64,000 bases of DNA from an uncultured Candidatus Saccharibacteria bacterium (GTDB lineage: Bacteria > Patescibacteriota > Minisyncoccia > Phycocordibacterales > UBA9973). The position numbers and the translations under genes were made by a program. Where the stretch lies: assembly GCA_964573395.1 (NCBI GenBank), contig CAZNJI010000003.1, forward strand, positions 15,951 through 79,950. The letters run 5' to 3'. This document shows, piece after piece, positions 2,777 through 46,975 of the stretch (position 1 is the stretch's first letter; every line of letters starts with the position of its first letter). The notes below the pieces were generated by a model. The model made no database searches, had not been told where the DNA came from, and saw only the letters and a list, made by a program, of their open reading frames with translations.

Positions 2777-3574
2777 ATGCAAGAAGAAAAAACCTTCGAT
2801 GTTGAGAAGTTTCTGTCTGAAAAGACCTCTCAAACGGTTTATAATGGCTTATCTCCTGAACTGAAAGAGGTAACCCGCGTGTTATTCGTGGAAAAAGGCA
2901 TGAACGGCGAGCTTTCCGATGTTTTCAAATCCGGCGCACCTAGTACCAGAGAATTTCTTTCAAAGAAAAAAGTGGAGCTTGATAAGGAAAAGAAAGAGCT
3001 CGAAGCTGTGCAAGAAAAAAACCGTAAAGAAGCAGAAGAGCGGGAGAAAAAGCTCCAGGAGATGAACAACAAGTCTGTCCGGGTAGCACACAGGAATCTG
3101 CTGATCAAACAACTATTCGGCCTTGAAACTACCGGCAAGAAGAACGACGAAGTTATCCAACTAATTAAAACTTACCACGCAAGCCAATGCAAAAGTATTC
3201 TGTCACCGATGCTCAATTCCTTAGACCTTTCTGACGAAAGGATCGAAGACAAAATTATCCGTTGTGGAATTTCAGCCGTTTACAGGAACATATTCGCAAC
3301 CTCTTCGTTTGTATCAAACGCAGAAGGAAGACAAGTGGCAATTTATGCCCGCGTGCTTGAAAATGAATTCAAAAGAAAGATTTTCAGGTATGGCATTAAC
3401 GACAGCGACGAAAAGATCGAAGAGACAATGGCGCAAAAAAGGAATGAAATTATTAATTTCATTGCCAACGAAGAAGCGTCCAGGACCGGCATGCCGATTG
3501 AAGATCTCAAATTCCAGGCTGAAGGAAACTTGCCCCACATTATTGTCGATTTAACAGTAGCCGCCTTAGGTTAA
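2777..3574 (+). CDS. Hypothetical Lys/Glu-rich coiled-coil protein
   Basis: 265-aa ORF with an ATG start. A TTGACA-N16-TAGTGT promoter sits at 2707-2735. No recognisable domain. Confidence 0.45.
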   Translation: MQEEKTFDVEKFLSEKTSQTVYNGLSPELKEVTRVLFVEKGMNGELSDVFKSGAPSTREFLSKKKVELDKEKKELEAVQEKNRKEAEEREKKLQEMNNKSVRVAHRNLLIKQLFGLETTGKKNDEVIQLIKTYHASQCKSILSPMLNSLDLSDERIEDKIIRCGISAVYRNIFATSSFVSNAEGRQVAIYARVLENEFKRKIFRYGINDSDEKIEETMAQKRNEIINFIANEEASRTGMPIEDLKFQAEGNLPHIIVDLTVAALG

Positions 3575-7077: not shown

Positions 7078-8145
7078 ATGGAAAGTCTGTATATTACCAT
7101 CGGAATTTTGGCGGGCGCATTCGTTATGTTCCTTATTTTCGTGGCCCGCCGAAAACCGAGCACTCCGCCGGCAAACCAGGAACAAAACCAAGGAATGCAG
7201 CTTTTAATGCAGCAGCTTCATGAACTGCAGCGCACCGTCGACCAAAAACTCGGCGATTCTGAAAAAAGCCTGCGCGAATCGCTGCAGTTTCAATCCCGCG
7301 AATCGAACCGGGTTATCGCCGACATTACCGAACGACTCACCCGCCTTGATGAAACGAACAAGCAGGTAGTGTCGTTTACCGAAGAACTTGCTCAGTTGCA
7401 GGATATTTTAAAGAACCCAAAACAGCGCGGCATTTTGGGTGAATACTACCTAGAGACGCTTCTAAAAAACGTGCTTCCCCCATCAAGCTACCAGATGCAG
7501 TACGCTTTTAAAGACGGCTCGATCGTTGATGCGGTTATTTTCGTGAAAGAAAAAATCATTCCGGTTGATTCGAAATTCTCGCTTGAAAATTACAATCGGC
7601 TGTTCGAAGAGAAAAATCCGGTTGAACGCGAGCGGCTTGAGAAGCTTTTCGTTGCCAATTTAAAAGAGCGCATTGTTGAAACCGCCCAGTACATAAAACC
7701 TGAAGAAGGTACGATGGATTTTGCGTTCATGTTCATTCCGCACGAGGCGATTTACTACGACTTGCTGGTAAATAAAATCGGCGCACTGAAAGAAGATACC
7801 GAAAACCTTATCCAGCGGGCAGCCGGCAAATACCGCGTTATTATCGTTTCTCCTACCTCCTTCCTCGCCTATCTGCAAACGGTGCTACAGGGCTTAAAAG
7901 CGCTGCAGATTGAAGAATCAGCGAAAGAGATTCGAACTCGCGTCGATGAGCTGGGGCGGCATTTAAAATCGTATGAAGATTACCACAACCGCCTGGGCAA
8001 CAGCCTGCGCACGGTGGTAAACCACTACAGCGCTTCAGGCAGAGAGCTGAAGAAAATGGACAAAGACGTGGTGCGCATTACCGGCTCTTCTCCGGGTCTT
8101 TTGCCGGAGACCGTTTCTCTTGAAGACGATCCGCTCGATAGCTAG
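7078..8145 (+). CDS. rmuC: DNA recombination protein RmuC
   Basis: 355 aa with an N-terminal TM helix, coiled coil and a C-terminal RmuC nuclease-like region. Length and architecture are typical. Confidence 0.75.
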   Translation: MESLYITIGILAGAFVMFLIFVARRKPSTPPANQEQNQGMQLLMQQLHELQRTVDQKLGDSEKSLRESLQFQSRESNRVIADITERLTRLDETNKQVVSFTEELAQLQDILKNPKQRGILGEYYLETLLKNVLPPSSYQMQYAFKDGSIVDAVIFVKEKIIPVDSKFSLENYNRLFEEKNPVERERLEKLFVANLKERIVETAQYIKPEEGTMDFAFMFIPHEAIYYDLLVNKIGALKEDTENLIQRAAGKYRVIIVSPTSFLAYLQTVLQGLKALQIEESAKEIRTRVDELGRHLKSYEDYHNRLGNSLRTVVNHYSASGRELKKMDKDVVRITGSSPGLLPETVSLEDDPLDS

Positions 8146-8909
8146 CGAATATATTCAGGCCGAAGCACGCTCGTAAGGTTTGCATACGGCACGGTTACCG
8201 TTTGTGTTCCGGCGGCATAGGCTGCAACTTGGTACGGATCAAAAATAAAATCGATGCCGGTATCTTTTAATACGAAGTTCTGGTAGTTGTCTGCAATCGG
8301 CGCTGCGCCTTCGCTAATCCAGTTCGCATCGGCAAATTCACGCTTCTTCAAATCTGCTTGTACTACTTTTGAAACTGGTGTGAGGTAATCAACTCCCGCC
8401 TTGAATATGTCAGAGAGCGTAATGATTTCTCCGTTTTCATTAAACGAATAGGTTTTGCTGTAATGGTTCGGATGCGCGCCGCCGGTATCAAGCGAAATCT
8501 CAAACACGTAATTATACGCAATACTTGAAACATTACTGGTGTAATCAATTGAAATGAAATACTGGCGATCCGGCGAAAGGCCAAGTTCCTGCGCCTGCTC
8601 TGCAGTCATAACTGCAACGCCGGTGTCTTCAAGAAACTGCCGCACTTGTTCGCTGATGAAAGAGATGAAAATGTCGTTAACGCGCTTGTTCTCGGTTTCG
8701 GGATAAAATGCATCAACATGGTAGTATGTGCCTTTTTCTGAAAGATCGGCACGGCGGATTTCGCGCGGAACGAAACCAGTAACCGGATCTGCCGGCAGTT
8801 CCTCGTTAGGGTTTGCCTCAGGAGCTGGGCGGCTCTTGAGGACCAGCCATCCTCCTGCAAAAGCGGCTGCGACGATAAGAATGCTGATGATGAGTTTTTT
8901 GTGTTGCAT
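8142..8909 (-). CDS. DUF3298/DUF4163 (RsiV/PdaC-like) membrane-anchored protein
   Basis: Begins MQHKKLIISILIVAAAFAGGW (signal anchor). The C-terminal half resembles DUF3298. Confidence 0.5.
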   Translation of the reverse strand: MQHKKLIISILIVAAAFAGGWLVLKSRPAPEANPNEELPADPVTGFVPREIRRADLSEKGTYYHVDAFYPETENKRVNDIFISFISEQVRQFLEDTGVAVMTAEQAQELGLSPDRQYFISIDYTSNVSSIAYNYVFEISLDTGGAHPNHYSKTYSFNENGEIITLSDIFKAGVDYLTPVSKVVQADLKKREFADANWISEGAAPIADNYQNFVLKDTGIDFIFDPYQVAAYAAGTQTVTVPYANLTSVLRPEYIR

Positions 8910-8959
8910 ACCCCTGTAGTGTACCCCTTTCTGCCCCGCAATCAAAACCAGGAAAATAA

Positions 8960-8988
8960 TTGAAAAATCGGCCAATTTTCAGTATAGT
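8960..8988 (+). promoter_or_regulatory. Sigma-70-like promoter for tRNA-Glu(CTC)
   Basis: TTGAAA at 8960-8965, a 17-nt spacer, then TATAGT at 8983-8988. Confidence 0.5.
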
Positions 8989-9010
8989 TGTGCTTGCTTG
9001 GTGAATTAAG

Positions 9011-9073
9011 GGCCTAAAACATTTTTTCCAAAAATGTTCGGCCGAACATTTGCCAAAGCAAATGTTTTAGGCC
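9011..9073 (+). promoter_or_regulatory. Nested palindromic leader overlapping the 5' end of tRNA-Glu
   Basis: The outer arms GGCCTAAAACATTT (9011-9024) and AAATGTTTTAGGCC (9060-9073) are perfect reverse complements. They enclose a perfect 20-bp palindrome AAATGTTCGGCCGAACATTT (9032-9051). The 3' arm overlaps the first nucleotides of the tRNA (GGCC). Confidence 0.5.
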
Positions 9074-9141
9074 CTATCGTCTAACGGTTAGGACATCGGC
9101 TTCTCAAGCCGGTAATCGGGGTTCGATTCCCCGTAGGGTCA
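9070..9141 (+). tRNA. tRNA-Glu (anticodon CUC)
   Basis: Cloverleaf: acceptor GGCCCTA/TAGGGTC, anticodon stem TCGGC/GCCGG, loop TTCTCAA, T-arm CGGGG-TTCGATT-CCCCG. No encoded CCA. Confidence 0.85.
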
Positions 9142-9253
9142 CACGATTTTTATTCTTATTTTAACAATGTAATTTTTTGGTACCAAATGGGAGTTTGGAA
9201 CCAAAATAAAAAAGCCATCCTTTCGGATAAGCTTTAAGTAAAATTCTTTTAAT

Positions 9254-9583
9254 TTATTTACTCTTCATGAGCTGCGGAACCCTTTCGGCCAGTTCTTTTC
9301 CAGTAAATCCAAGCTCCTGCGCAAGCTTTAATGTATTTACCAGCATCTTTACGGTTGCTTCTTCCACCTGGCTTTTATTCATATAGGTGTACTTGCCCGT
9401 ATGATCATAGCTTTCACATACTTCCGCAATTTTACCGATAGACTTTTGCATATGAAGAACGCTGTGATTTAAAGCAAACATCGCTTTTTGCTCCGGTGGC
9501 ATATCTTTCATTACCGGGTAATTTTCCTCATTAAAAATGTACTTAGAGCCAATAAACTCTATAAATTGCTGTACTGTTTCCAT
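9254..9583 (-). CDS. Hypothetical 109-aa protein, possibly a MazG-like all-alpha NTP-PPase fold
   Basis: ATG start, own promoter and terminator, low GC. Weak resemblance to small MazG/YpjD-type proteins (ALNHSVLHMQKSIGKIAE...EEATVKML), but the catalytic acidic residues are not all conserved. Confidence 0.4.
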   Translation of the reverse strand: METVQQFIEFIGSKYIFNEENYPVMKDMPPEQKAMFALNHSVLHMQKSIGKIAEVCESYDHTGKYTYMNKSQVEEATVKMLVNTLKLAQELGFTGKELAERVPQLMKSK

Positions 9584-9635
9584 GTTTTTTGATTTTACCT
9601 ACACTACCATTTCCTTAATATTCGTCAATATTCGA

Positions 9636-9662
9636 TTCCAATTCCGACCACATTCGGTCACA
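9636..9662 (+). repeat. Islet junction motif copy a (TTCCAATTCCGACCACATTCGGTCACA)
   Basis: One of four related copies. It lies just upstream of the -35 element (CGTCAA at 9623-9628 on plus, i.e. TTGACG on the coding strand) of the gene at 9254-9583. Followed by GAAATTGGAAACAAAAAAGCC. Confidence 0.6.
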
Positions 9663-9685
9663 CACTGTAGTGGAAATTGGAAACA

Positions 9686-9720
9686 AAAAAGCCGTTCCTT
9701 TCGGTTCGGCTTTGTTTCAA
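9686..9720 (-). terminator. Probable intrinsic terminator of the gene at 9734-10279
   Basis: An imperfect hairpin (GCCGAACCGAAAGGAACGGC) followed by TTTTTTGTTTCC on the minus strand. Confidence 0.35.
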
Positions 9721-9733
9721 TGAAAACTTTTGA

Positions 9734-10279
9734 TCAATTCTTGCTGATTGTGACTTTTTCTTCTTTCATCAGAAAATGGTCAGGGGCAAACTCTGTTACG
9801 ATACCCACAATAACTGAAAGCGGTACATACATTCCCTGGACGATACAGTCGATTCCTTTCAGAGGCATTTTGAATTGCTCTTGCATAGATTCGTGCATTT
9901 CAGTTACCAGGTCAGACAGCTCAGGGTCATCTGTTTTTCCACTTTCGGAAACACTGTTAAGGATATCCACCGCTTCAGTGAAATGCTGGTAGAAACCCTC
10001 ATAATACATATTAGCCAGCTTCAGTCCTTCCGCACTGATATCTATCAGCGGAACCCATGTTGTGTACATTTCCCGTACTTCAGGGAACTTGTTCTTGTTG
10101 GATTCAGTAACAAACAGGCTTTTCATTGCTGTGTGCCAGTTGTTACGGAAGATTTGATGCCCAACCTTCATCATGTCCTTTGCGGCTGACATTTTTCCGA
10201 GAAAATCTTTTTTCTTTGAAGCTTTAACGAAATTGGTTTTTGCTTCTTCGAACAGTGAGAAATATTCAATCGGTTTCAT
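9734..10279 (-). CDS. Hypothetical 181-aa protein (islet module)
   Basis: ATG start. A perfect TTGACA-N17-TATTAT promoter lies upstream on the coding strand (about 10333-10361), and a structured 5' UTR contains the inverted repeats TTTAGTGGTT/AACCACTAAA. No recognisable domain. Confidence 0.45.
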   Translation of the reverse strand: MKPIEYFSLFEEAKTNFVKASKKKDFLGKMSAAKDMMKVGHQIFRNNWHTAMKSLFVTESNKNKFPEVREMYTTWVPLIDISAEGLKLANMYYEGFYQHFTEAVDILNSVSESGKTDDPELSDLVTEMHESMQEQFKMPLKGIDCIVQGMYVPLSVIVGIVTEFAPDHFLMKEEKVTISKN

Positions 10280-10434
10280 ATTTTGTTGATTTTAGTGGTT
10301 ACCAGAAATCCTATATCTGGACCTTTGGAAACCACTAAAACTCTCTCAAGGAACTCTATGGCTATATAATAGCATAATTATACATAAATGTCAATATATT
10401 ACTTTCCTATACAAACCAATACTTTTAAATAAAT

Positions 10435-10462
10435 GGTTCCAATTCTGACCACATTGGGTCAC
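10435..10462 (+). repeat. Islet junction motif copy b (GGTTCCAATTCTGACCACATTGGGTCAC)
   Basis: A near-identical copy of the junction motif. It ends in GGGTCAC, like the tRNA-Glu 3' end. Confidence 0.6.
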
Positions 10463-10534
10463 CTAAAGCAAAACTCTTGCTCTCGTTTACTACTAAACTC
10501 GTGGCTACCCTTTGGGTAGCCATAAATGGAGATT

Positions 10535-10565
10535 TAAATAAAAAGATCCCCTTTATTCGGGGATC
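10535..10565 (-). terminator. Intrinsic terminator of the gene at 10576-11355
   Basis: The hairpin GATCCCCGAATAAAGGGGATC is followed by a T-run on the minus strand. Confidence 0.55.
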
Positions 10566-10575
10566 GGATTAAATC

Positions 10576-11355
10576 TTATGCCTTTTCCAATTCCTTCTCT
10601 TTTCTGAAAGCAGTAACCGCAATGTCCTTGATTGAAAGAGTTGAATTGTTGCTTTGAAGCACAGTGTTTACCCATACGGTAAGGTCGTTAAAAAGCTTTG
10701 ATGCCTTGAATGCTTCGACAGAGATACTCTGTTCTTCGGTAAGAACTTCGTGGGCAACCAGCATGTCGCCTTTCTCGCAGACAAACACTACACCCAACCG
10801 TTCGTTCATCGAAGTGGCTGATCTTTCCAGAGGAACAATAGGAAGCGAATCCTTGATTCCATGAAGAATGACTTTCGTGTTACCCTTGTTTTCTTCAACG
10901 AGGAGCGTGATATCCGGTATGTGATTTTCCAAAAGAAACTCTACCCGAAACAGTACGTCTGCATAAAAATTCTTTTTGAATTCCATCGCTTTTTGTACCC
11001 CTTCAAGGTAGCCAGTCATCTTTTTGAAATTGTCCACCCCGTTGCTTATGTGGGCAACATCAACCTGGTTTGCTTCACGTTCCCTGATGTTTTCTTTCTT
11101 TTGGTCGAAACCAATAACACGATCGTATTCTTTGTTCGGGAAAATGTAATGGAAGCCGAAATAGTGTATCTTCATCTCTCTTCCACAACCACATTCACAC
11201 GAAAAACTAATATATGCATTCCATTTTTCGTTATCTTTGGTTGAGCGGAATAGGTCGTAGAAACTTTTGAGACGTATTTCTTCACTAATGTTGCCACAGT
11301 GCTCTACCCAATCAGGGAGGCTTTCTAAAAGGTTTATGTTTGTTTTTCTATTCAT
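10576..11355 (-). CDS. Hypothetical 259-aa protein with an N-terminal Cys/His cluster (islet module)
   Basis: ATG start. Carries WVEHCGN...SFSCECGCGREM...HYFGFHY. Upstream on the coding strand is a TTGCCA-N16-TAGTGT promoter. No recognisable domain. Confidence 0.45.
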   Translation of the reverse strand: MNRKTNINLLESLPDWVEHCGNISEEIRLKSFYDLFRSTKDNEKWNAYISFSCECGCGREMKIHYFGFHYIFPNKEYDRVIGFDQKKENIREREANQVDVAHISNGVDNFKKMTGYLEGVQKAMEFKKNFYADVLFRVEFLLENHIPDITLLVEENKGNTKVILHGIKDSLPIVPLERSATSMNERLGVVFVCEKGDMLVAHEVLTEEQSISVEAFKASKLFNDLTVWVNTVLQSNNSTLSIKDIAVTAFRKEKELEKA

Positions 11356-11457
11356 AAAGAACTAGTTTAGTGATTGATTATTTTGCTTACACTACCATTT
11401 ATCCTGAATTTGGCAATAGTCCTCTCATTTCATGTATACTGCTTTTCAACGCTAGTT

Positions 11458-11496
11458 GGTACCCCACTATTTCGGAAATCCAAGTCTTGGGGTCAC
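11458..11496 (+). repeat. Degenerate junction motif copy d (GGTACCCCACTATTTCGGAAATCCAAGTCTTGGGGTCACAG)
   Basis: Shares the GGT(T/A)CC start and the GGGGTCACA end with copies a-c; the middle has diverged. Confidence 0.35.
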
Positions 11497-11504
11497 AGAT
11501 TCTG

Positions 11505-11540
11505 GAAAAGAAAAAAGACCCGAAATATTCAGGTCTTTGG
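11505..11540 (-). terminator. Intrinsic terminator of the gene at 11554-12144
   Basis: The hairpin GACCTGAATATTTCGGGTC is followed by TTTTTTCTTTT on the minus strand. Confidence 0.55.
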
Positions 11541-11553
11541 ATAATTTTTTGTA

Positions 11554-12144
11554 CTAAGAAACATTTTGTAAAATGCGCAAACCATTTGTCCACGGAACAC
11601 CAATTTGGCAATCAATACCCCAGCGATTTCCGTATTGGCTACCCAGCCACCCTATGATAACAGGATAAATAGTAGTATCAGTTTTTTCTTCGTTAATCTT
11701 TACTTCAACTGAAACATATCCAACTAAAGTAGTGTTTGCATTTGTCAGTACGCCTTTTTCTCCTGACATTTGTTTCTTAGTCAATTGTAAAATTCTTTCA
11801 GCAATCTGGGTTGGGTCGGTAGTAGAGATGTTTAGATCAGACATAAGTTGCTTATCATACTTTGAGTGATTGTAGTGTCCTACTGATGAAATATATTCAC
11901 CTTTTGATCTCTCAGCCTGGTGAGTATAAAAGGTAGTTCCACACTGTAACTCTTTTTGTTTAAGAGTTTCAGCAGCTATCTCTTTGTCGGATATAAGCGG
12001 AAGAACATATTTAGTAAAGTTTTCTCCTTGCCAGTATTGTCTAAGAGCTTCCTTTCGCTTCTTGCGCTTTATACTTTTAACGGTGCAGATACCAATGTCT
12101 TGGTAGTGATTTTGCGGATTGTAGGTAGTGGAAGTACTTTTCAT
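11554..12144 (-). CDS. Hypothetical 196-aa protein (islet module)
   Basis: ATG start with its own promoter and terminator. No recognisable domain. Confidence 0.45.
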   Translation of the reverse strand: MKSTSTTYNPQNHYQDIGICTVKSIKRKKRKEALRQYWQGENFTKYVLPLISDKEIAAETLKQKELQCGTTFYTHQAERSKGEYISSVGHYNHSKYDKQLMSDLNISTTDPTQIAERILQLTKKQMSGEKGVLTNANTTLVGYVSVEVKINEEKTDTTIYPVIIGWLGSQYGNRWGIDCQIGVPWTNGLRILQNVS

Positions 12145-12193
12145 TTTTTAAATTTTCCTTACAATACCATCTCTCTGAGATCCGTCAATATCT

Positions 12194-12221
12194 GGTTCCA
12201 ATTCTGACCACATTCCCTCAC
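12194..12221 (+). repeat. Islet junction motif copy c (GGTTCCAATTCTGACCACATTCCCTCAC)
   Basis: Third near-identical copy. It lies directly upstream of the TTGACG-N16-TATTGT promoter (coding strand) of the gene at 11554-12144. Confidence 0.6.
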
Positions 12222-12261
12222 AATTTGAAAATTCTTCGTAGAGAGTATTTAGTTCCCCTCT

Positions 12262-12299
12262 TTTGTAATTAAAACCCACCCCTATATAGGGGGTGGGTT
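12262..12299 (-). terminator. Probable terminator of the phosphagen kinase gene
   Basis: The hairpin AACCCACCCCTATATAGGGGTGGGTT is followed by TTAATTAC on the minus strand. Confidence 0.45.
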
Positions 12300-12307
12300 A
12301 ATTTCGC

Positions 12308-13330
12308 TTAATTATTCAATGATTTCTCGAGCTCTATGAGTTTTTTTACTCCATGATAAAGCTGTTCGTAAATCTCACGTTCGGTTACCCCAAGGCGGCG
12401 CTTATTCGAAATGTCGTAGATGCCATCGGAAGATTCCGAGTGCTCTCCGTGTACGCCTCGGATCGATAGCCCAAGCGTTCCGCATATTGCTTTGAAGTTT
12501 TCACTCGCCGAAAGTTTTGGAATCTTAATGTGTACCGAAGCACGCATTGCTGTTCCTAAATTGGTTGGACAAGTGGTGTGGTATCCGCGGATATCATCAA
12601 AAGCAAAGTGAATTTTTTCATTGATGAAATCGAGTGCAGTTGCCAACCGCATGAATACTTCAGCAATGTCGGCACCCTGCTGCATGCTAATAATACGCAT
12701 ACTGTCTTCTTCTGAAATCCATACCAGGAACCTCTTATCATCTGAAAAGAAAATTCCGCGATTCTTCGGCCAGTCGCGGTTTACGCCAACACTTTCTAAA
12801 AAACGGTCTCCCTGCTTGAATAAGAAATGGTCTGCAACCAGTTTTTGCCGCATTTCTTCGCTCATGCCGTCAAGCGGAAAATATTCTCCCTTGAGCGATC
12901 CAGGAAGCTGCTGTAGTGCTGCAATAATTTCAGACTCCATAGCTGCCCGATCTGCCGCTGATATGGCAGAAGGAAACGCATATTTTGCAAAATTACGCCC
13001 AACCCGGATACGGGTTGATACAACATAACTCCCTTCTGGATCCAAGTTTTCAATAGAAAGACCAATGAGCGAAAAATCGCTTCTGTGGCCGGCCATGTCG
13101 TAGTGGTGATAATCCTTAATCACCGGGTCAAAAAGAGGAGCAAGCATAGTATACGATTCAGGATCGCCTGCATAGACACCAATACTTGAGTCTGGATTAT
13201 CAATGCCAGACTGAATGGCTTTTTGTAGTGTCCAGCCATGCGGAGTCGTTACATCGGCCAATTGTGTCTGTACTGCTTCACTGCAGTACTTTTTCATTAA
13301 CATGTCGGGGTTTGATTTAATTTCTGTCAT
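12308..13330 (-). CDS. Phosphagen (arginine/creatine-type) kinase, ATP:guanido phosphotransferase
   Basis: Active-site signature CPTNLGT (PROSITE pattern C-P-x-[ST]-N-[ILV]-G-T), ISNKRRLGVTE, and a eukaryote-like N-terminal domain (YAGDPESYTMLAPLFDPVIKDYHHY). 340 aa, full-length fold. Confidence 0.85.
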   Translation of the reverse strand: MTEIKSNPDMLMKKYCSEAVQTQLADVTTPHGWTLQKAIQSGIDNPDSSIGVYAGDPESYTMLAPLFDPVIKDYHHYDMAGHRSDFSLIGLSIENLDPEGSYVVSTRIRVGRNFAKYAFPSAISAADRAAMESEIIAALQQLPGSLKGEYFPLDGMSEEMRQKLVADHFLFKQGDRFLESVGVNRDWPKNRGIFFSDDKRFLVWISEEDSMRIISMQQGADIAEVFMRLATALDFINEKIHFAFDDIRGYHTTCPTNLGTAMRASVHIKIPKLSASENFKAICGTLGLSIRGVHGEHSESSDGIYDISNKRRLGVTEREIYEQLYHGVKKLIELEKSLNN

Positions 13331-13391
13331 AAGAACGATAGTTTACTGTAAATTTTGAAATAATACTATCCTATAAGGGTTTTTTGTCAAT

Positions 13392-13601
13392 TTATAAAGA
13401 TTGAATTGACAAATCAAAAAGCTTCGCTGTTTTAGGCGAAGCTTTGCTCACTTCCTGGTGCTGCATTGCCTTATCCCGCTGTTTTTTCAGAACGACAAAG
13501 ACGGCAATACAGATGAAGAGAATAATGATCATTGGCAGAAAGAATGTGTACTTTGGATTCTTGGTGTGATTAAAATCGTACCAAGCTTTTTTCATATCCA
13601 T
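13392..13601 (-). CDS. Possible small single-TM membrane protein
   Basis: 69 aa with an ATG start and one clear TM helix (FFLPMIIILFICIAVFVVL). Its 3' end overlaps a terminator-like hairpin at 13416-13445, so coding status is uncertain. Confidence 0.3.
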   Translation of the reverse strand: MDMKKAWYDFNHTKNPKYTFFLPMIIILFICIAVFVVLKKQRDKAMQHQEVSKASPKTAKLFDLSIQSL

Positions 13602-13683
13602 AATGAACCATTTTTGTGCGTATATAATACTATATTAATAGATTTTGTCAAATATAACAAGTTCTGGACTAATCAGTTATTTT

Positions 13684-15324
13684 TTATATTTTGAGCAACT
13701 CTCGCACTTTCTTAAACCCGAGTGCCACAATAAATGTTGAGAGCCGCGGACCGGTGTCTTTTGAAATAAGCAGGTTGTACAAATCTTTAAAGAAAGCGCG
13801 CTGGCGAACTGCGTTCTCTTTCTGATCGAGCGATTCATCTTTGGCAATATCGTATATAAACTGCTCAAGATTTTCTTCAATCAATTCGTTCTTTTCGATT
13901 GCAGTAAGAAGCGTAGCTACATACCCCTTTCCTTCTTCAGTCATTTTTTCGTAATATGCAGTATTTGGCTCAGTGCGAATAGAAATTTTTTCTTCTGTAT
14001 TGTATATGTCGAGCCAATTCTTCGCTTTTGGAATGCGATTCTTCAGTGCCTGGCTATCTACAGCCGCACCTGCGCTCTCAAAGAGCATCAGCATCTTCGA
14101 TGCATCCCATTGCATAATCTGTCCAAAGGCCACTGTCTGGCGGAACGACGTTGGTTGACCATAGTGCTTCTCGCTTTCTGAGAGCGACCAGGCAAGAGAG
14201 TCCGCCGCGATTGCATCCAATTCCCCATTCTCTAATTTTTTCACCCCCAGATCGTACTCTTCATACTGGCGATAAATTTCACTGTCAAATGCCAGGTTAA
14301 ACGGCTGTGCCGGCGTCTTGCGAAGATAGAGCCACTTTAAAAGCCGGGCTTCGTAAATCTGCAGCAAGTCCTCCGGCGAGACAGCGCCGCCTTTCGAGCC
14401 GGACATTTTGCCGTCCATTCCCACAATGCCGACGAATTTATACTCGACAAATACCGGCGGCTCGCTCGAAAAAATTTCTTTCGCGATGATGCTTGAAACA
14501 TCGAAGCTTGATCCTGGAGAAGCGTGGTCGTGCCCGCCCGGTTCGAACACCACTTCTTCATGCATCCAGCGCATTGGCCAATCTACTTTCCACGGAAGCT
14601 TGTAGCAAAAATCCGTTTTTAAATCGATCGTTTCTTCCTGCTTTGTTTCTTTGCAGTAATAGGTTACCTTCGATTCGCCGTTAAACGATCTGATTTCAGT
14701 GAAATCTTTGCCAGTAAAACGCGAATAAATTGCGATTGGGAAATAACTCTCAACAAAAGATTCCTTCGTGAGGCATTTTTCTTTGATCGCTTTTTCGCTC
14801 ATAAGCGAAAACATAACTTCGCCGATCTCTTTGCGCTTTTGCATCGCCAGAATTACCTTCTCAGCATAGGCGCCGCTCTCGTAGAGCTCGGTTTGGTTTT
14901 TATACTCAAGTTCAATGCCAAGCTTTCGCATTGATTCTTCGAATGGTTTTTGAAAACTTTCGGCATAGGATGCGTACTTGCCCGTCGGATCGGGAATCTT
15001 TGAAATCGGCATGCCGATGTATTGGCTAAACGATTCCGGCACCCCAGCCGGCACTTTTCGAAAGCGGTCGAAATTATCCCAGGAAAAAACAAATCGGGTT
15101 TGCTTGCCCTTTTCTTTGAGCGCCTGCAACACGGCGAAAGAGGTCATGACGTCACGGAAATTCCCGAAGTGCACCACTCCCGACGGGCTAATGCCTGCTG
15201 CGGCAGTGTACACATCCTTGTCTGGAAATGCCTTCAGTACCTCATCCGCAATGGTGCGCGCCCAGTGCTGGTTACCTGTTTCCAAGCTGCGTGGGTTGAT
15301 TCGCTTTGATTGATCGAATGCCAT
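13684..15324 (-). CDS. lysK: Lysyl-tRNA synthetase, class I (archaeal type)
   Basis: GISPSGVVHFGNFRD (class I HIGH region), WDNFDRFRKVP, IGMPISKIPDP, KMSGSKGG and GPRLSTFI match class I LysRS (Pyrococcus-type) motif for motif. Confidence 0.85.
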   Translation of the reverse strand: MAFDQSKRINPRSLETGNQHWARTIADEVLKAFPDKDVYTAAAGISPSGVVHFGNFRDVMTSFAVLQALKEKGKQTRFVFSWDNFDRFRKVPAGVPESFSQYIGMPISKIPDPTGKYASYAESFQKPFEESMRKLGIELEYKNQTELYESGAYAEKVILAMQKRKEIGEVMFSLMSEKAIKEKCLTKESFVESYFPIAIYSRFTGKDFTEIRSFNGESKVTYYCKETKQEETIDLKTDFCYKLPWKVDWPMRWMHEEVVFEPGGHDHASPGSSFDVSSIIAKEIFSSEPPVFVEYKFVGIVGMDGKMSGSKGGAVSPEDLLQIYEARLLKWLYLRKTPAQPFNLAFDSEIYRQYEEYDLGVKKLENGELDAIAADSLAWSLSESEKHYGQPTSFRQTVAFGQIMQWDASKMLMLFESAGAAVDSQALKNRIPKAKNWLDIYNTEEKISIRTEPNTAYYEKMTEEGKGYVATLLTAIEKNELIEENLEQFIYDIAKDESLDQKENAVRQRAFFKDLYNLLISKDTGPRLSTFIVALGFKKVRELLKI

Positions 15325-43587: not shown

Positions 43588-43677
43588 GGAGGAATGCCAG
43601 AGTGGTTGAATGGGCCGCTCTCGAAAAGCGGTAGAGCCGAAAGGTTCTCGAGAGTTCGAATCTCTCTTCCTCCGCCA
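43588..43677 (+). tRNA. tRNA-Ser (anticodon CGA)
   Basis: Acceptor GGAGGAA, anticodon loop CTCGAAA, a long variable arm, T-arm GAGAG-TTCGAAT-CTCTC. CCA is encoded. Confidence 0.85.
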
Positions 43678-43730
43678 AGAGAACTTAGTATCGGCATAAC
43701 CTACAACCCTATGTATGTGGGGCGACCCAG

Positions 43731-44117
43731 TTAGTTTTTTCCTTGTTTACGGTACGTTTGTTTAATTTCCGAGTAAAGCTTTTTGGTAGTAGCTTTCCTA
43801 GCGTTTTCCTTAGAAAACAATTCGACTGGGTATTTTTCTTTTACTTTTTTCAATTTTTCTTCAAGAATCTTTTGGAGATCCAAATCGAGTATGACACCCA
43901 TATCTAAACAGTAGATAAGAATATCTGCCAACTCTTTCTTTATTTTTTCTAATTGCTCTGCATCAACTTTTTTCTTATTGCGAGTATTGTCCCACTGGAA
44001 GATCTCAAGAAGCTCTGCACTTTCAATAACGAGAGATTTTGCTATATCCGCAGGGTGAAGATTGTCCCAACCTCTTTCTTCAAGATATTCTTTTACTTTT
44101 TTCTTAAGGCTATTCAT
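43731..44117 (-). CDS. MazG-like nucleoside triphosphate pyrophosphohydrolase (small all-alpha NTP-PPase)
   Basis: 128 aa. SLVIESAELLEIFQW...KKELADILIYCLDMG matches MazG/YpjD-type EExxE...E..D motifs. ATG at 44117. Confidence 0.65.
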   Translation of the reverse strand: MNSLKKKVKEYLEERGWDNLHPADIAKSLVIESAELLEIFQWDNTRNKKKVDAEQLEKIKKELADILIYCLDMGVILDLDLQKILEEKLKKVKEKYPVELFSKENARKATTKKLYSEIKQTYRKQGKN

Positions 44118-44130
44118 TACTTTTATTATA

Positions 44131-44177
44131 ATAAAAAATCCCGTCCCGTGGTTAGTACCACAGGACGGGTTTTGTTG
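44131..44177. terminator. Bidirectional intrinsic terminator
   Basis: The hairpin CCCGTCCCGTGG-TTAGTA-CCACAGGACGGG has A/T runs on both sides. Confidence 0.55.
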
Positions 44178-44179
44178 CA

Positions 44180-44947
44180 TCATTTCAGCAACTGCAATGC
44201 CTTGACGAGATACGTCTCGGCCATACCCCAGTCGATCTGGTCGAGAGCACTTCCGCTCGGCCGAAGCTTGCCTTGAGCATCAATCGAGATGTCGGGAAAC
44301 TCCCGATACAGAGGCTCGACGAGCCCGATGCTTTCAGGTCCGAGTCCGCCAGCCGCGACGATCCCGAGATTGGGAAACGCTTCCTTGATCGCTCGAGCGA
44401 ACGGAATGAGTCCCACAGCATCCATGCCGAGTCCTCGCCCCATGCTCTTGTCGAGAAGGACGTGCTGAGCGACACCTTCGTAACCCCGAAGCCGTTCGAC
44501 GACTTCTTGCGGATCGTTGTTGGCTTGCTCAATTGCATTCTTGCCGACTTGGAGAATGACCTCCAGCTGCTTGCGCGAGGCGTGAACCACACCGGCGACG
44601 TGTCCTGGATCTGGCCAGACCATGTCGAGTTGCAGAGCGTTGATACCGATGCCTCCGAACTTGATCGCGCGACCGAGACTTTGGAAAACATCGATCGCAT
44701 CGTAGTCCGCATAGTGCAGGCAGTTCATCGTCTCGTCCGAGCCGAAGATGTCAGCGATCGTCTCCTTGGAAGGGAACGCTTTCGTCCATTTGGTCTCAAG
44801 ACCATGAAGCGTCTTGTAGCTCATCATCACGCCGACATGAAGCCGACGGTTCTGTTCTGCTCCAAGGTTCGTCTTGAACACCGCGAGCATACGTTGGACC
44901 TGCTCAAAAGTCATGAAGTCGGTGATGCCGACGTATGGGATGTACAT
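44180..44947 (-). CDS. TrpF-like (phosphoribosylanthranilate-isomerase fold, TIM barrel) protein, GC-rich and probably horizontally acquired
   Basis: Weak PRAI-like motifs (YVGITDF, LQLDMVW, VLLDKSMGRGLGMD, IVAAGGLGPESIG). About 57% GC with strongly GC3-biased codons, against ~45-48% in its neighbours. Confidence 0.45.
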   Translation of the reverse strand: MYIPYVGITDFMTFEQVQRMLAVFKTNLGAEQNRRLHVGVMMSYKTLHGLETKWTKAFPSKETIADIFGSDETMNCLHYADYDAIDVFQSLGRAIKFGGIGINALQLDMVWPDPGHVAGVVHASRKQLEVILQVGKNAIEQANNDPQEVVERLRGYEGVAQHVLLDKSMGRGLGMDAVGLIPFARAIKEAFPNLGIVAAGGLGPESIGLVEPLYREFPDISIDAQGKLRPSGSALDQIDWGMAETYLVKALQLLK

Positions 44948-45094
44948 GATTTGGCCTCCTTTGTGTTTTTGGTTTATGAATGTGTCTATCTGACTTGGAT
45001 ATTACTGATTTTATGGAGAAAGTCTAGGAAAATAAACCCGACCTACATACCCCATTTCAATCTCCAAAGATCTGCTGAATAACCTTATGGTGCC

Positions 45095-45321
45095 TCACCA
45101 CCCTGGTACTTAACCCACGATCCCCGCGGTTTGAACGTAGTGAAGAACTGCGGGAGATTCGAACGGGAAAGGGGTCGGGAAAACGGGAGTTTTCCCGTGG
45201 TGGAGGTATTGGAACCGCCTGGTTCCAAAGCATAGTACTGAGTTTTTCGAAGTACGAGCAGTGAGATTCTCACCATCTCCGCAGAAGTGGAAACGGAGCC
45301 GTTATGAGGCTCCGTTTTTTT
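45095..45321 (+). ncRNA. Putative structured small RNA, unclassified, ending in an intrinsic terminator
   Basis: No credible ORF. Multiple local hairpins (GGGAAAAC/GTTTTCCC, TTGGAACC-GCCT-GGTTCCAA, GTACT...AGTAC, GTGAG-ATT-CTCAC). A distal pairing CCTCACCACC with GGTGGTGGAGG. The terminator GGAGCCGTTATGAGGCTCC is followed by T7 at 45295-45321. Confidence 0.25.
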
Positions 45322-45932
45322 CAATAATGAAATGTTTCCAGAAAAAAGATTGCGCTGCCGTTTAGGATAACATGGACAATGGATACGAGAGTAAAGTCTC
45401 TGAATTTCCAATACAGAAAATTGAAAAAGATTCCGCTTAGAAAAATTAAAACAATTGAAACCGCATCAAGCGGATAAAAACTGTGCATACCGGTAAATAC
45501 AACGGTGTTCACTCCGTAGTTCAATGCCGAACTTCTAAAGATTTCTTTCCCCAACCGCAAAAGATATCCCTGGTAGAGAAAAACCTGCAGAATGGAGCCC
45601 ATAACGGTATGCTGCAGAAAAGTAAGCGATCCGGTCGTGAAGAAGAACATTGCCACCAGGAATGCCGCTATGGTTCCGATGTAGGAAGTGAAAAATGCAT
45701 CAACCTGCTTGTTGTTAGGAAAAACATCGGTTAGCTTCCATCTTTTTACGATTACGATGCGAATCGCACTTATGACGACTACCAACAGAAAGACGCTCAC
45801 CAGAACTTCAAGATTGTTCCGTATCGGAATGATTCCGAAAATCAAGAGGCAAGGGGCAAAAACGGCAATGAAAACGTACTCGGCGCAAAGCAAGAGTTTC
45901 TGAAAAGAAAAGTGTAAGGAACTTGGATTCAT
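45321..45932 (-). CDS. CPBP-family intramembrane metalloprotease (CAAX protease/Abi)
   Basis: Multi-TM. Has CPBP motif 2 (FTGMHSF) and motif 3 (HVILNGSAIFF). 203 aa. Confidence 0.65.
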   Translation of the reverse strand: MNPSSLHFSFQKLLLCAEYVFIAVFAPCLLIFGIIPIRNNLEVLVSVFLLVVVISAIRIVIVKRWKLTDVFPNNKQVDAFFTSYIGTIAAFLVAMFFFTTGSLTFLQHTVMGSILQVFLYQGYLLRLGKEIFRSSALNYGVNTVVFTGMHSFYPLDAVSIVLIFLSGIFFNFLYWKFRDFTLVSIVHVILNGSAIFFLETFHY

Positions 45933-46682: not shown

Positions 46683-46685
46683 TCT

Positions 46686-46707
46686 GTGAGCGATACAGGA
46701 ATCGGCT
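46686..46707 (-). repeat. Direct repeat of the tRNA-Val 3' end (partial pseudo-tRNA, att-like scar)
   Basis: TCTGTGAGCGATACAGGAATCG (plus strand) is identical to 46812-46833, which covers the T-stem, acceptor 3' strand and ACA of tRNA-Val. Confidence 0.55.
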
Positions 46708-46817
46708 ATCACGTAGCCAGGTGTGTTTCGACCTCGATGACTCGATAACGAAACTCCTTTCGATTCCGTACGCATGCAAAGCAGTTTGCATGCTATCGCC
46801 TCAGCCGTCTTGCGTCT

Positions 46818-46891
46818 GTGAGCGATACAGGAATCGAACCTGTGACCTCAGCAATGTCAATGCTGCGCTCTAACCATCTGAGCTAATCGCT
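46818..46891 (-). tRNA. tRNA-Val (anticodon GAC)
   Basis: Reverse complement: GAGCGAT-TA-GCTC-AGATGGTTA-GAGC-G-CAGCA-TTGACAT-TGCTG-AGGTC-ACAGG-TTCGATT-CCTGT-ATCGCTC-A. Confidence 0.85.
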
Positions 46892-46975
46892 CGCTCGTCC
46901 TGCTATCCTAGCGTATTTTGATATTTTTTCAAAAAAATTGATTTTTACCAATTTACTGGTACAATCTTTCGCACT

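Follow-up and report, generated by a model that had tools for sequence, protein, structure and literature searches.

Two groups of described systems come closest to the locus analyzed here. Integrons and clusters of attC sites lacking integrases (CALINs) are co-oriented arrays in which short repeats separate one- or two-gene cassettes. Islands associated with tRNA genes and tandem arrays of staphylococcal cassette chromosome (SCC) elements carry variable accessory genes and co-oriented, repeated boundary sequences; in the islands the cargo directly adjoins a tRNA gene at its 3' end, and SCC elements are inserted by Ccr large serine recombinases at rlmH. For Patescibacteria, a 2025 survey described many islands and mostly intra-phylum transfer, and mentioned no tRNA-linked or repeat-bounded system (PMC12455944). 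We analyzed a 64-kb stretch of contig CAZNJI010000003.1 from an uncultured Candidatus Saccharibacteria bacterium (the window). We consider it somewhat probable that the segment at 43.68-45.12 kb is a small mobile gene cassette, which was moved between Patescibacteria genomes and is located here on the 3' side of a tRNA-Ser gene. It would contain a conserved repeat marking the boundary (element A), a promoter and leader of its own, a gene for a (βα)8-barrel protein (the barrel gene) with its own terminator, and a gene for a MazG-like nucleoside-triphosphate pyrophosphohydrolase. Only tentatively, we propose that it belongs to an undescribed, integron-like system of Patescibacteria. In such a system, the ~100-nt element A, often together with a portable promoter and leader, would bound one- or two-gene cassettes, and dedicated large serine recombinases would insert and accumulate these as co-oriented arrays at tRNA-Ser genes. 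The barrel gene, which resembles that of phosphoribosylanthranilate isomerase (PRAI, TrpF), and the MazG-like gene would form one circulating cassette serving a phospho-sugar or nucleotide-salvage reaction in these cells of minimal metabolism.

The barrel gene (44180-44947, minus strand, 255 amino acids) is real, as the initial annotation had it: at least 961 homologues were found at E<=1e-3, the best being 90% identical. An antisense ORF of 269 amino acids (44273-45082, plus strand) had no family match. A 1,435-bp block on the minus strand (43682-45116), comprising the 3' part of element A, the promoter, the leader, the barrel gene, the terminator and the MazG-like gene, was 86.9% identical at the nucleotide level (blastn, 1,445 aligned columns) to positions 7832-9273 of loci L084 and L085. 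The match spanned the non-coding parts as well as the low-GC MazG-like gene (94.5% amino acid identity to the 128-residue L085 protein), and the GC mosaic of the block was the same in L085 (barrel gene ~55%, MazG-like gene ~32%). Outside the block, L084 and L085 showed no match to the 2.1-kb window segment 43400-45500; the other ORFs tested from the barrel-gene loci L004, L005, L001, L006 and L033 had no similarity in the window. The block ends at 43682, which is 5 nt from the 3' end (43677) of a tRNA-Ser(CGA) gene on the plus strand (43588-43677). The 3' end of this tRNA gene faces the cassette, and we propose the gene as its anchor or integration target. It was called by ARAGORN, yet it did not appear in the whole-window Rfam scan at the gathering threshold.

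The eight closest barrel-protein matches had identities of 85-90%, whereas the adjacent housekeeping protein TrxB reached a best non-self identity of 67% among 5.8 billion proteins. In L084-L086, the cassette lies amid a large serine recombinase, DNA methyltransferases and defense genes; in L001, the barrel gene is surrounded by restriction enzymes. In many other loci, tRNA-Ser or transfer-messenger RNA (tmRNA) genes lie just downstream of the barrel gene and antiparallel to it. These sequence comparisons support a recent horizontal acquisition of the block, as had been suggested from the composition of the gene. The cassette itself is a compositional mosaic, because a MazG-like gene of ~34% GC was co-transferred with a barrel gene of 56% GC.

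A vertically inherited, lineage-specific core gene, in which the GC excess arises from constraints that strong conservation of the enzyme puts on amino acids and codons, is an unlikely alternative. The GC content of the barrel gene was 56.0% (0.641, 0.371 and 0.668 at codon positions 1, 2 and 3; GC1-GC3), close to the ~57% first estimated for the block. The neighbors, put at ~45-48% in that estimate, were much poorer: 33.9-34.4% for the MazG-like gene and 41.2% for the flanking Rce1-like gene. The mean GC content of the window was 47.2%, with a standard deviation of 4.4 points for 768-bp windows. Only 0.24% of the 768-bp sliding windows were as GC-rich as the barrel gene, and the maximum elsewhere was 56.5%, near 36.3 kb. 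Most of this excess turned out to be an offset of the whole family. Barrel-gene GC exceeded flank GC by 4.5 points on average (range -10 to +15.5, 83 loci) and correlated with it (r = 0.80, 81 loci), and the window value lay 1.3 residual standard deviations above the family regression. Because gene GC tracks flank GC with a family-wide offset and the window residual is small, the elevated GC is mainly a property of the family. The compositional argument for transfer is thus largely unsupported. Nothing points to a high-GC donor outside the phylum, and the high-GC donor of the original transfer proposal does not hold; family-wide composition together with incomplete amelioration would account for the value.

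The tracking of host GC fits vertical inheritance, as do the strong conservation of the protein (mean column identity of 72% in an alignment of 32 diverse members) and the wide spread of the family, for which a profile search of 1.84 billion cluster representatives gave 1,883 clusters (50% identity) at E<=1e-3. The barrel protein also had no match in PHROGs, PADLOC or IMG/VR contigs, and on these searches a role as phage or defense cargo was rejected. Orthologues at one common locus had been named as grounds against transfer; we found that they share no conserved locus. Neighbor clusters recurred in at most 5 of ~80 loci, and Pfam families in at most 3 of ~150 neighbors. The vertical explanation attributes this lack of synteny to fast genome rearrangement in Patescibacteria, and it takes the repeat to be an unrelated intergenic element. 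Against it stand the 86.9% identity, which runs through non-coding parts and an unrelated low-GC gene and stops sharply at tRNA-Ser, the ceiling of 67% for TrxB, the presence of the same cassette in the recombinase and defense island of L084-L086, and the same promoter and leader ahead of unrelated cargo genes.

Element A lies at 45037-45128 on the minus strand and follows the pattern GCGG-N7-GGGTTAAGTACC ... TAAGGKTATT ... GGTCGGG. It is ~95-105 nt long, and its nhmmer profile matched the window at 45128-45023 (E 5.8e-18). An exact-pattern scan of metagenomes gave at least 120 copies, and one further copy was found on the IMG/VR contig L087. In an alignment of 76 copies, the blocks GGGTTAAGTACC and TAAGGNTATT were invariant and GGGTC was nearly so; the first two invariant blocks were the search pattern, and their invariance is partly circular. 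RNAalifold predicted three pairs with no covariation, the top mutual-information pairs were not Watson–Crick, and the minimum free energy showed no excess stability relative to shuffles (z -0.3 and -0.6). Given the absence of covariation and of excess folding stability, element A looks like a sequence-recognized site rather than a hairpin RNA. Rfam, searched at the gathering score and at E<=10, had no match in element A or the hairpin-rich segment beside it, nor upstream of element A in 12 other loci. The literature yielded no description of the repeat or of a tRNA-Ser cassette array; the repeat, recombinase and tRNA-Ser array system is previously undescribed in the searchable literature.

The copies of element A were associated with tRNA-Ser genes. 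Among 62 tRNA genes near the copies, 35 were downstream and antiparallel, and 31 of these 35 were tRNA-Ser genes with five anticodons. They mostly lay 330-2,950 nt from element A; the distance in the window is 1,342 nt. Two or three copies of element A were present in 21 loci, and all of the adjacent pairs (26/26) were co-oriented, with spacings of 447-1,460 nt and one exception of 6,654 nt. In L006, the order was A-barrel-A-x-A followed by tRNA-Ser, and in L085 it was A-barrel-MazG-A-NDT-A, where NDT denotes a nucleoside deoxyribosyltransferase. Diverse cargo genes lay between copies of element A as well as between element A and the tRNA gene; the latter included a serine recombinase, an amidase, RelA/SpoT-like, GIY-YIG and RuBisCO-like proteins and several domains of unknown function (DUFs). 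The RuBisCO-large-like cargo gene of L151 encodes 350 amino acids. Small GIY-YIG proteins (~90 amino acids) were encoded between element A and tRNA-Ser in L090, L102 and L149, directly beside the tRNA gene and on its strand. The Rfam LOOT RNA (RF03000) scored above the gathering threshold in three loci carrying element A arrays (L085 12991-13118, minus strand; L112 3271-3391 and L154 9001-9113, plus strand).

The possibility that element A is a locus-specific copy of the tRNA-Ser 3' end was rejected for most loci. Exact 17-18-nt repeats of the tRNA-Ser 3' end were found beyond element A in L102 and L144, with no general signal in other loci. A further conserved block lies downstream of element A in ten loci (L092, L097, L111, L112, L115, L117, L122, L129, L135 and L164). 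In this block, AATG(A/C)GACA occurs twice as a direct repeat, with GTACTAAGG and an inverted TGTCTCATT after it; the block looks like an operator or a set of recombinase arm-type sites. A small conserved reverse-strand ORF (MPLSDRSIKELQEII...) abuts it in L092, L097, L112 and L115.

Between element A and the barrel gene, we found a sigma-70-type promoter with a leader (44948-45026, minus strand). Its parts are a -35 box TAGACT (45026-45021), a 16-nt spacer, a -10 box TAATAT (45004-44999) and the ribosome-binding site AGGAGG (44960-44955). A generic promoter scan did not list it. The segment was conserved upstream of the barrel genes of L001, L004, L005 and L085, and also ahead of unrelated cargo genes in L123, L104 and L148. 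A riboswitch or another 5'-UTR RNA was considered and rejected. Only the proximal ~80 nt were conserved in the closest relatives, and these read as promoter and ribosome-binding site; half of the element A copies had no same-strand ORF downstream, and neither covariation nor excess stability was seen.

Homologues of one conserved family of large serine recombinases, 33-100% identical to two query sequences, were present in 16 loci with element A and were co-oriented with it in every one (16/16). The recombinases of L085 (5105-6421) and L135 (3986-5314), which come from different metagenomes, were 86% identical. This value is well above the identity of housekeeping proteins between these lineages, which suggests that the recombinase itself is spreading.

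The arrays combine features of both groups of described systems: the locus works in the manner of a tRNA-linked island or an SCC-type tandem array, and the likeness to an integron array is superficial. With integrons and CALINs they share, in addition to their general layout, a repeat (here element A) that often starts within a few tens of bases of the stop codon of an opposite-strand cargo ORF and contains GTTAAGT, which fits the GTTRRRY core consensus. They differ in that no IntI tyrosine recombinase was seen, although no search was aimed at IntI, and the recombinases seen were serine-type. Element A forms no attC-like hairpin, cassettes such as that of the window carry their own promoter, and the array is anchored at tRNA-Ser. 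With tRNA-associated islands and SCC arrays they share the large serine recombinases in related loci and, in L102 and L144, an exact second copy of the tRNA 3' end at the distal boundary. Unlike those elements, the units here are very small (0.45-1.5 kb), the system uses several tRNA-Ser isoacceptors, and the window holds no recombinase. Moreover, the ~95-105-nt repeat is strongly conserved across very divergent genomes and is not a copy of the local tRNA end.

The 45.0-45.3 kb stretch had been described as hairpin-rich, without a credible ORF and similarly raised in GC. We found no supported ORF, and the predicted folds of the segment 45060-45325 had free energies of -107.2 kcal/mol (plus strand, z -5.1) and -97.4 kcal/mol (minus strand, z -4.7), which no shuffle reached. 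Its GC content was only mildly elevated (48.5% for 45000-45300 and 52.1% for 45085-45320). The stretch is not simply part of the same GC-rich block, as had been supposed, but a composite of the promoter and leader, element A, a tRNA-relic module and a terminator. The module (45142-45287) carries a T-loop-like TTCGAATC on the minus strand (45163-45156). Its plus strand has a hairpin resembling a T-arm, with a loop of 3 nt (GTGAG-ATT-CTCAC, 45261-45273), followed by the acceptor-like CATCTCC (45274-45280) and a G (45281). The intrinsic terminator (45291-45321, plus strand; AAACGGAGCC-GTTATGA-GGCTCCGTTT and a T run) abuts the stop codon of the convergent Rce1-like gene. It is part of the predicted fold and similar to the terminator after the L025 tmRNA; the terminator scan did not list it.

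The module is similar to L056 3037-3109, a segment that lies beside tRNA-Lys and ends in a duplicate of the 3' end of that tRNA. In L056, a second copy of the tRNA-Lys 3' end is located ~170 nt away from the gene (2955-2990 and 3161-3233), and the similar module occupies the interval. The 3' part of the module resembles the L025 tmRNA end plus its terminator, and CATCTCC matches all four Patescibacteria tmRNAs examined. Of 102 element A copies, 13 had a same-strand T-loop-like motif upstream, as compared with one of 102 that had it downstream. ARAGORN and Rfam called the module neither tRNA nor tmRNA, and no direct repeat of the T-loop-like fragment was found elsewhere in the window. The module shares with tmRNA (ssrA) and tRNA pseudogenes at island junctions the T-arm-like hairpin, the CATCTCC motif, a terminator as at the ssrA end of L025 and the T-loop-like sequence. 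It differs in that it escapes both programs, has a 3-nt T-loop and no tag ORF, and spans only ~145 nt. We read it as a decayed junction relic and not as a working RNA gene. Separately, tmRNA genes were found 0.1-0.8 kb from the barrel gene in four of ~80 species loci (L015 5275-5651, L039 3002-3407 and L050 4845-5241 on the minus strand; L025 2882-3267 on the plus strand), where well under one would be expected for a single-copy gene.

It is quite unlikely that ~45040-45320 is instead a functional small RNA gene on the plus strand, of a reduced tmRNA- or tRNA-like kind, divergent to the barrel gene and with its end at the terminator 45291-45321. The strong predicted structure with its T7 terminator on that strand fits such a gene, as does the 3' end, which resembles a tmRNA T-arm and acceptor. 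By sequence reading, GGGAGATTCGAAC is also similar to the GGNTTCGAC motif near the 5' end of the same four tmRNAs, and no tmRNA was called elsewhere in the window. However, the real ssrA of this genome need not fall within 64 kb, and all Rfam tmRNA and tRNA models remained negative even at E<=10. The T-loop has shrunk from 7 to 3 nt, a tag reading frame is lacking, and no plus-strand promoter was found. True tmRNAs compared by blastn with the regions upstream of element A showed no similarity, and element A lacks covariation and excess stability. A genuine tmRNA is likewise unsupported: ARAGORN and Rfam RF00023 were negative, the tag region was absent from the alignment with the L025 tmRNA, and blastn gave no similarity.

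For the mobile cassette, we propose the following mechanism. Site-specific recombination at or close to element A would insert, accumulate or shuffle the cassettes, with element A serving as a recognition or boundary site for recombinase-mediated insertion at tRNA-Ser. The segment beyond element A (45142-45321) would be the distal junction, consisting of a decayed tRNA- or tmRNA-like 3' end and the original terminator. Because no recombinase lies within the 64 kb, the window copy would be either a fixed remnant or mobilized in trans.

Several observations weigh against this interpretation. The transfer argument presupposes that, were the L085 organism a close relative, its TrxB would have been present in the database. 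The nhmmer profile found no second copy of element A in the window, and tblastn with two queries found no large serine recombinase there; tyrosine integrases were not searched for. Typical serine-recombinase att sites are only about half as long as element A. The 3' end of tRNA-Ser scored on average 8.0 against the region of element A for the tRNA of the same locus, compared with 7.2 for the tRNAs of other loci. In the window, a degenerate match to the tRNA-Ser 3' end at 45264-45283 has 13 of 20 positions identical by eye, and it resembles tmRNA ends at least as well. Finally, the MazG-like gene adjoins the barrel gene in only ~6 of 83 loci.

The barrel protein is the founding member of an unannotated family that was seen only in Patescibacteria. 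The named sources of its homologues (Paceibacteria, Minisyncoccia and many candidate phyla) all belong to this group, with identities of 60-90%, and all of these proteins are labeled hypothetical. The window protein had no Pfam match, with PRAI absent even at E<=1, and no sequence relative in the PDB. The NCBIfam TrpF model (PRK01222) matched it at E = 0.14, scoring 11.5 bits where the cut-off is 181. The searchable literature yielded no account of this family. The AlphaFold2 model is a (βα)8 barrel of eight strands alternating with helices (predicted local distance difference test, pLDDT, 93.1; predicted template-modeling score, pTM, 0.91). This agrees with the TIM-barrel fold and the weak TrpF similarity that had been read from the sequence. 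Foldseek against the PDB returned only generic barrel enzymes with TM scores of 0.5-0.6 and E values down to 3.6e-7, among them triosephosphate isomerases, MfnB/MJ1099, OMP decarboxylase and CutC.

More specific similarity came from the family as a whole. Among 129 diverse members, 37 had weak matches to Pfam PRAI (PF00697; best E 4.9e-5). In profile-to-PDB searches, the best matches were ribulose-phosphate 3-epimerase (RPE) and TrpF, through the AGGLGP loop (E 0.012 for the RPE loop). Alignment by hhalign with the E. coli TrpF domain extended over β6-β7 and took in the catalytic Asp as well as the phosphate loop GGLGP. It paired HVLLDKSMGRG...AAGGLGP with E. coli KYVLDNGQGGSG...LAGGLGA and placed D166 on the catalytic Asp. 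D166 and A199-P204 were nearly invariant among the 129 sequences. Family and TrpF share a (βα)8 barrel of ~250 amino acids, a β1 xxGIT motif, a β6 LLD followed by a Gly-rich loop, and the β7 AGGLGP phosphate loop, which is also common to RPE. They differ in that the family falls under every curated threshold, is ~50 residues longer and lacks a trp operon context. By eye only, E. coli NKVCGLT corresponds to PYVGIT, which places V or I at the position of the general base Cys, so that the family probably lacks this base; no tool alignment covered β1. The family also has additional near-invariant residues (H78, D81, Q106, D108, Q133, S221 and D223), located at or just past predicted strand ends in the AlphaFold2 model.

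Judged by sequence, the family is a remote relative of TrpF, and the relation is real but weak. The protein represents a new family within the ribulose-phosphate-binding barrel superfamily, with TrpF as its nearest relative. That the barrel gene encodes a genuine TrpF acting in tryptophan synthesis or salvage is very improbable: the PRAI and NCBIfam similarity and the conserved β6 Asp and phosphate loop would fit, but the window protein itself lacks a Pfam PRAI match and stays far below the NCBIfam cut-off, the catalytic Cys position holds V or I by eye, no trp family was among the top families of the ±2 neighbors in ~80 loci, as already noted for the window, and Patescibacteria, the only phylum in which the family was seen, generally lack most amino-acid biosynthesis. 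The gene neighborhood pointed to no function, with no conserved partner found there. We infer a phospho-sugar enzyme, probably of the phosphoribosyl type and isomerase-like, with a modified catalytic apparatus. The phosphorylated sugar would be bound through the β7 GGLGP and β8 loops. An acid/base isomerization or a related reaction on a phosphoribosyl-type substrate appears probable, involving the β6 Asp D166 with H78, D81, D108 and Q133. Beside its MazG-like partner, the enzyme may act on nucleotide-derived metabolites.

The barrel gene ends at an intrinsic terminator (44140-44169, minus strand) with a 13-bp stem, nine GC pairs and the tail ATTTTTTATT. It had been called bidirectional, which has no bearing here, as the barrel and MazG-like genes are both on the minus strand. 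The terminator sits between the barrel-gene stop and the probable MazG-like start at 44117; immediately after it and before the MazG-like ATG, the sequence reads TATAAT. The mechanical MazG-like ORF (150 amino acids) extends to 44183 and seemingly overlaps the barrel gene. This ORF is over-extended and the true start is probably 44117, because the 128-residue L085 homologue aligns from residue 23 of the long ORF. The protein of 128 amino acids (43731-44117, minus strand) matched Pfam MazG-like (E 1.2e-11) and the PHROG pyrophosphatase (E 1.1e-11); its gene has 33.9% GC and a GC3 of 0.333. In its long form (43731-44183), it is the most AT-rich gene of the window (~34% GC, GC3 0.33). On the other side, outside the block common with L085, lies the gene of an Rce1/CPBP-like membrane protease (45321-45932, minus strand; Pfam Rce1-like, E 4.9e-6).

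Two further features were observed in the window. An extended region at 9000-14000 has a low GC content (36-42%, against the window mean of 47%). A perfect 22-nt direct repeat occurs at 46683-46704 and 46815-46836, and its second copy is the 3' end of tRNA-Val(GAC) (46818-46892, minus strand). It resembles a small scar left by integration, at a distance of 132 nt from the tRNA.

The barrel family is unusually conserved, with 60-90% identity between named candidate lineages, and has no representative in Pfam, NCBIfam or the PDB. As a distant relative of TrpF in organisms without tryptophan synthesis, it is a good target in the search for a missing step of salvage metabolism. Patescibacteria account for much of bacterial diversity; their genomes are tiny and they presumably rely on hosts, and how they gain and exchange accessory functions is poorly understood. 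If the proposed system of repeat, recombinase and tRNA-Ser cassettes is correct, it would be a concrete mechanism for such exchange that can be tested, and element A would offer a sequence handle for finding accessory genes in fragmentary metagenomes.

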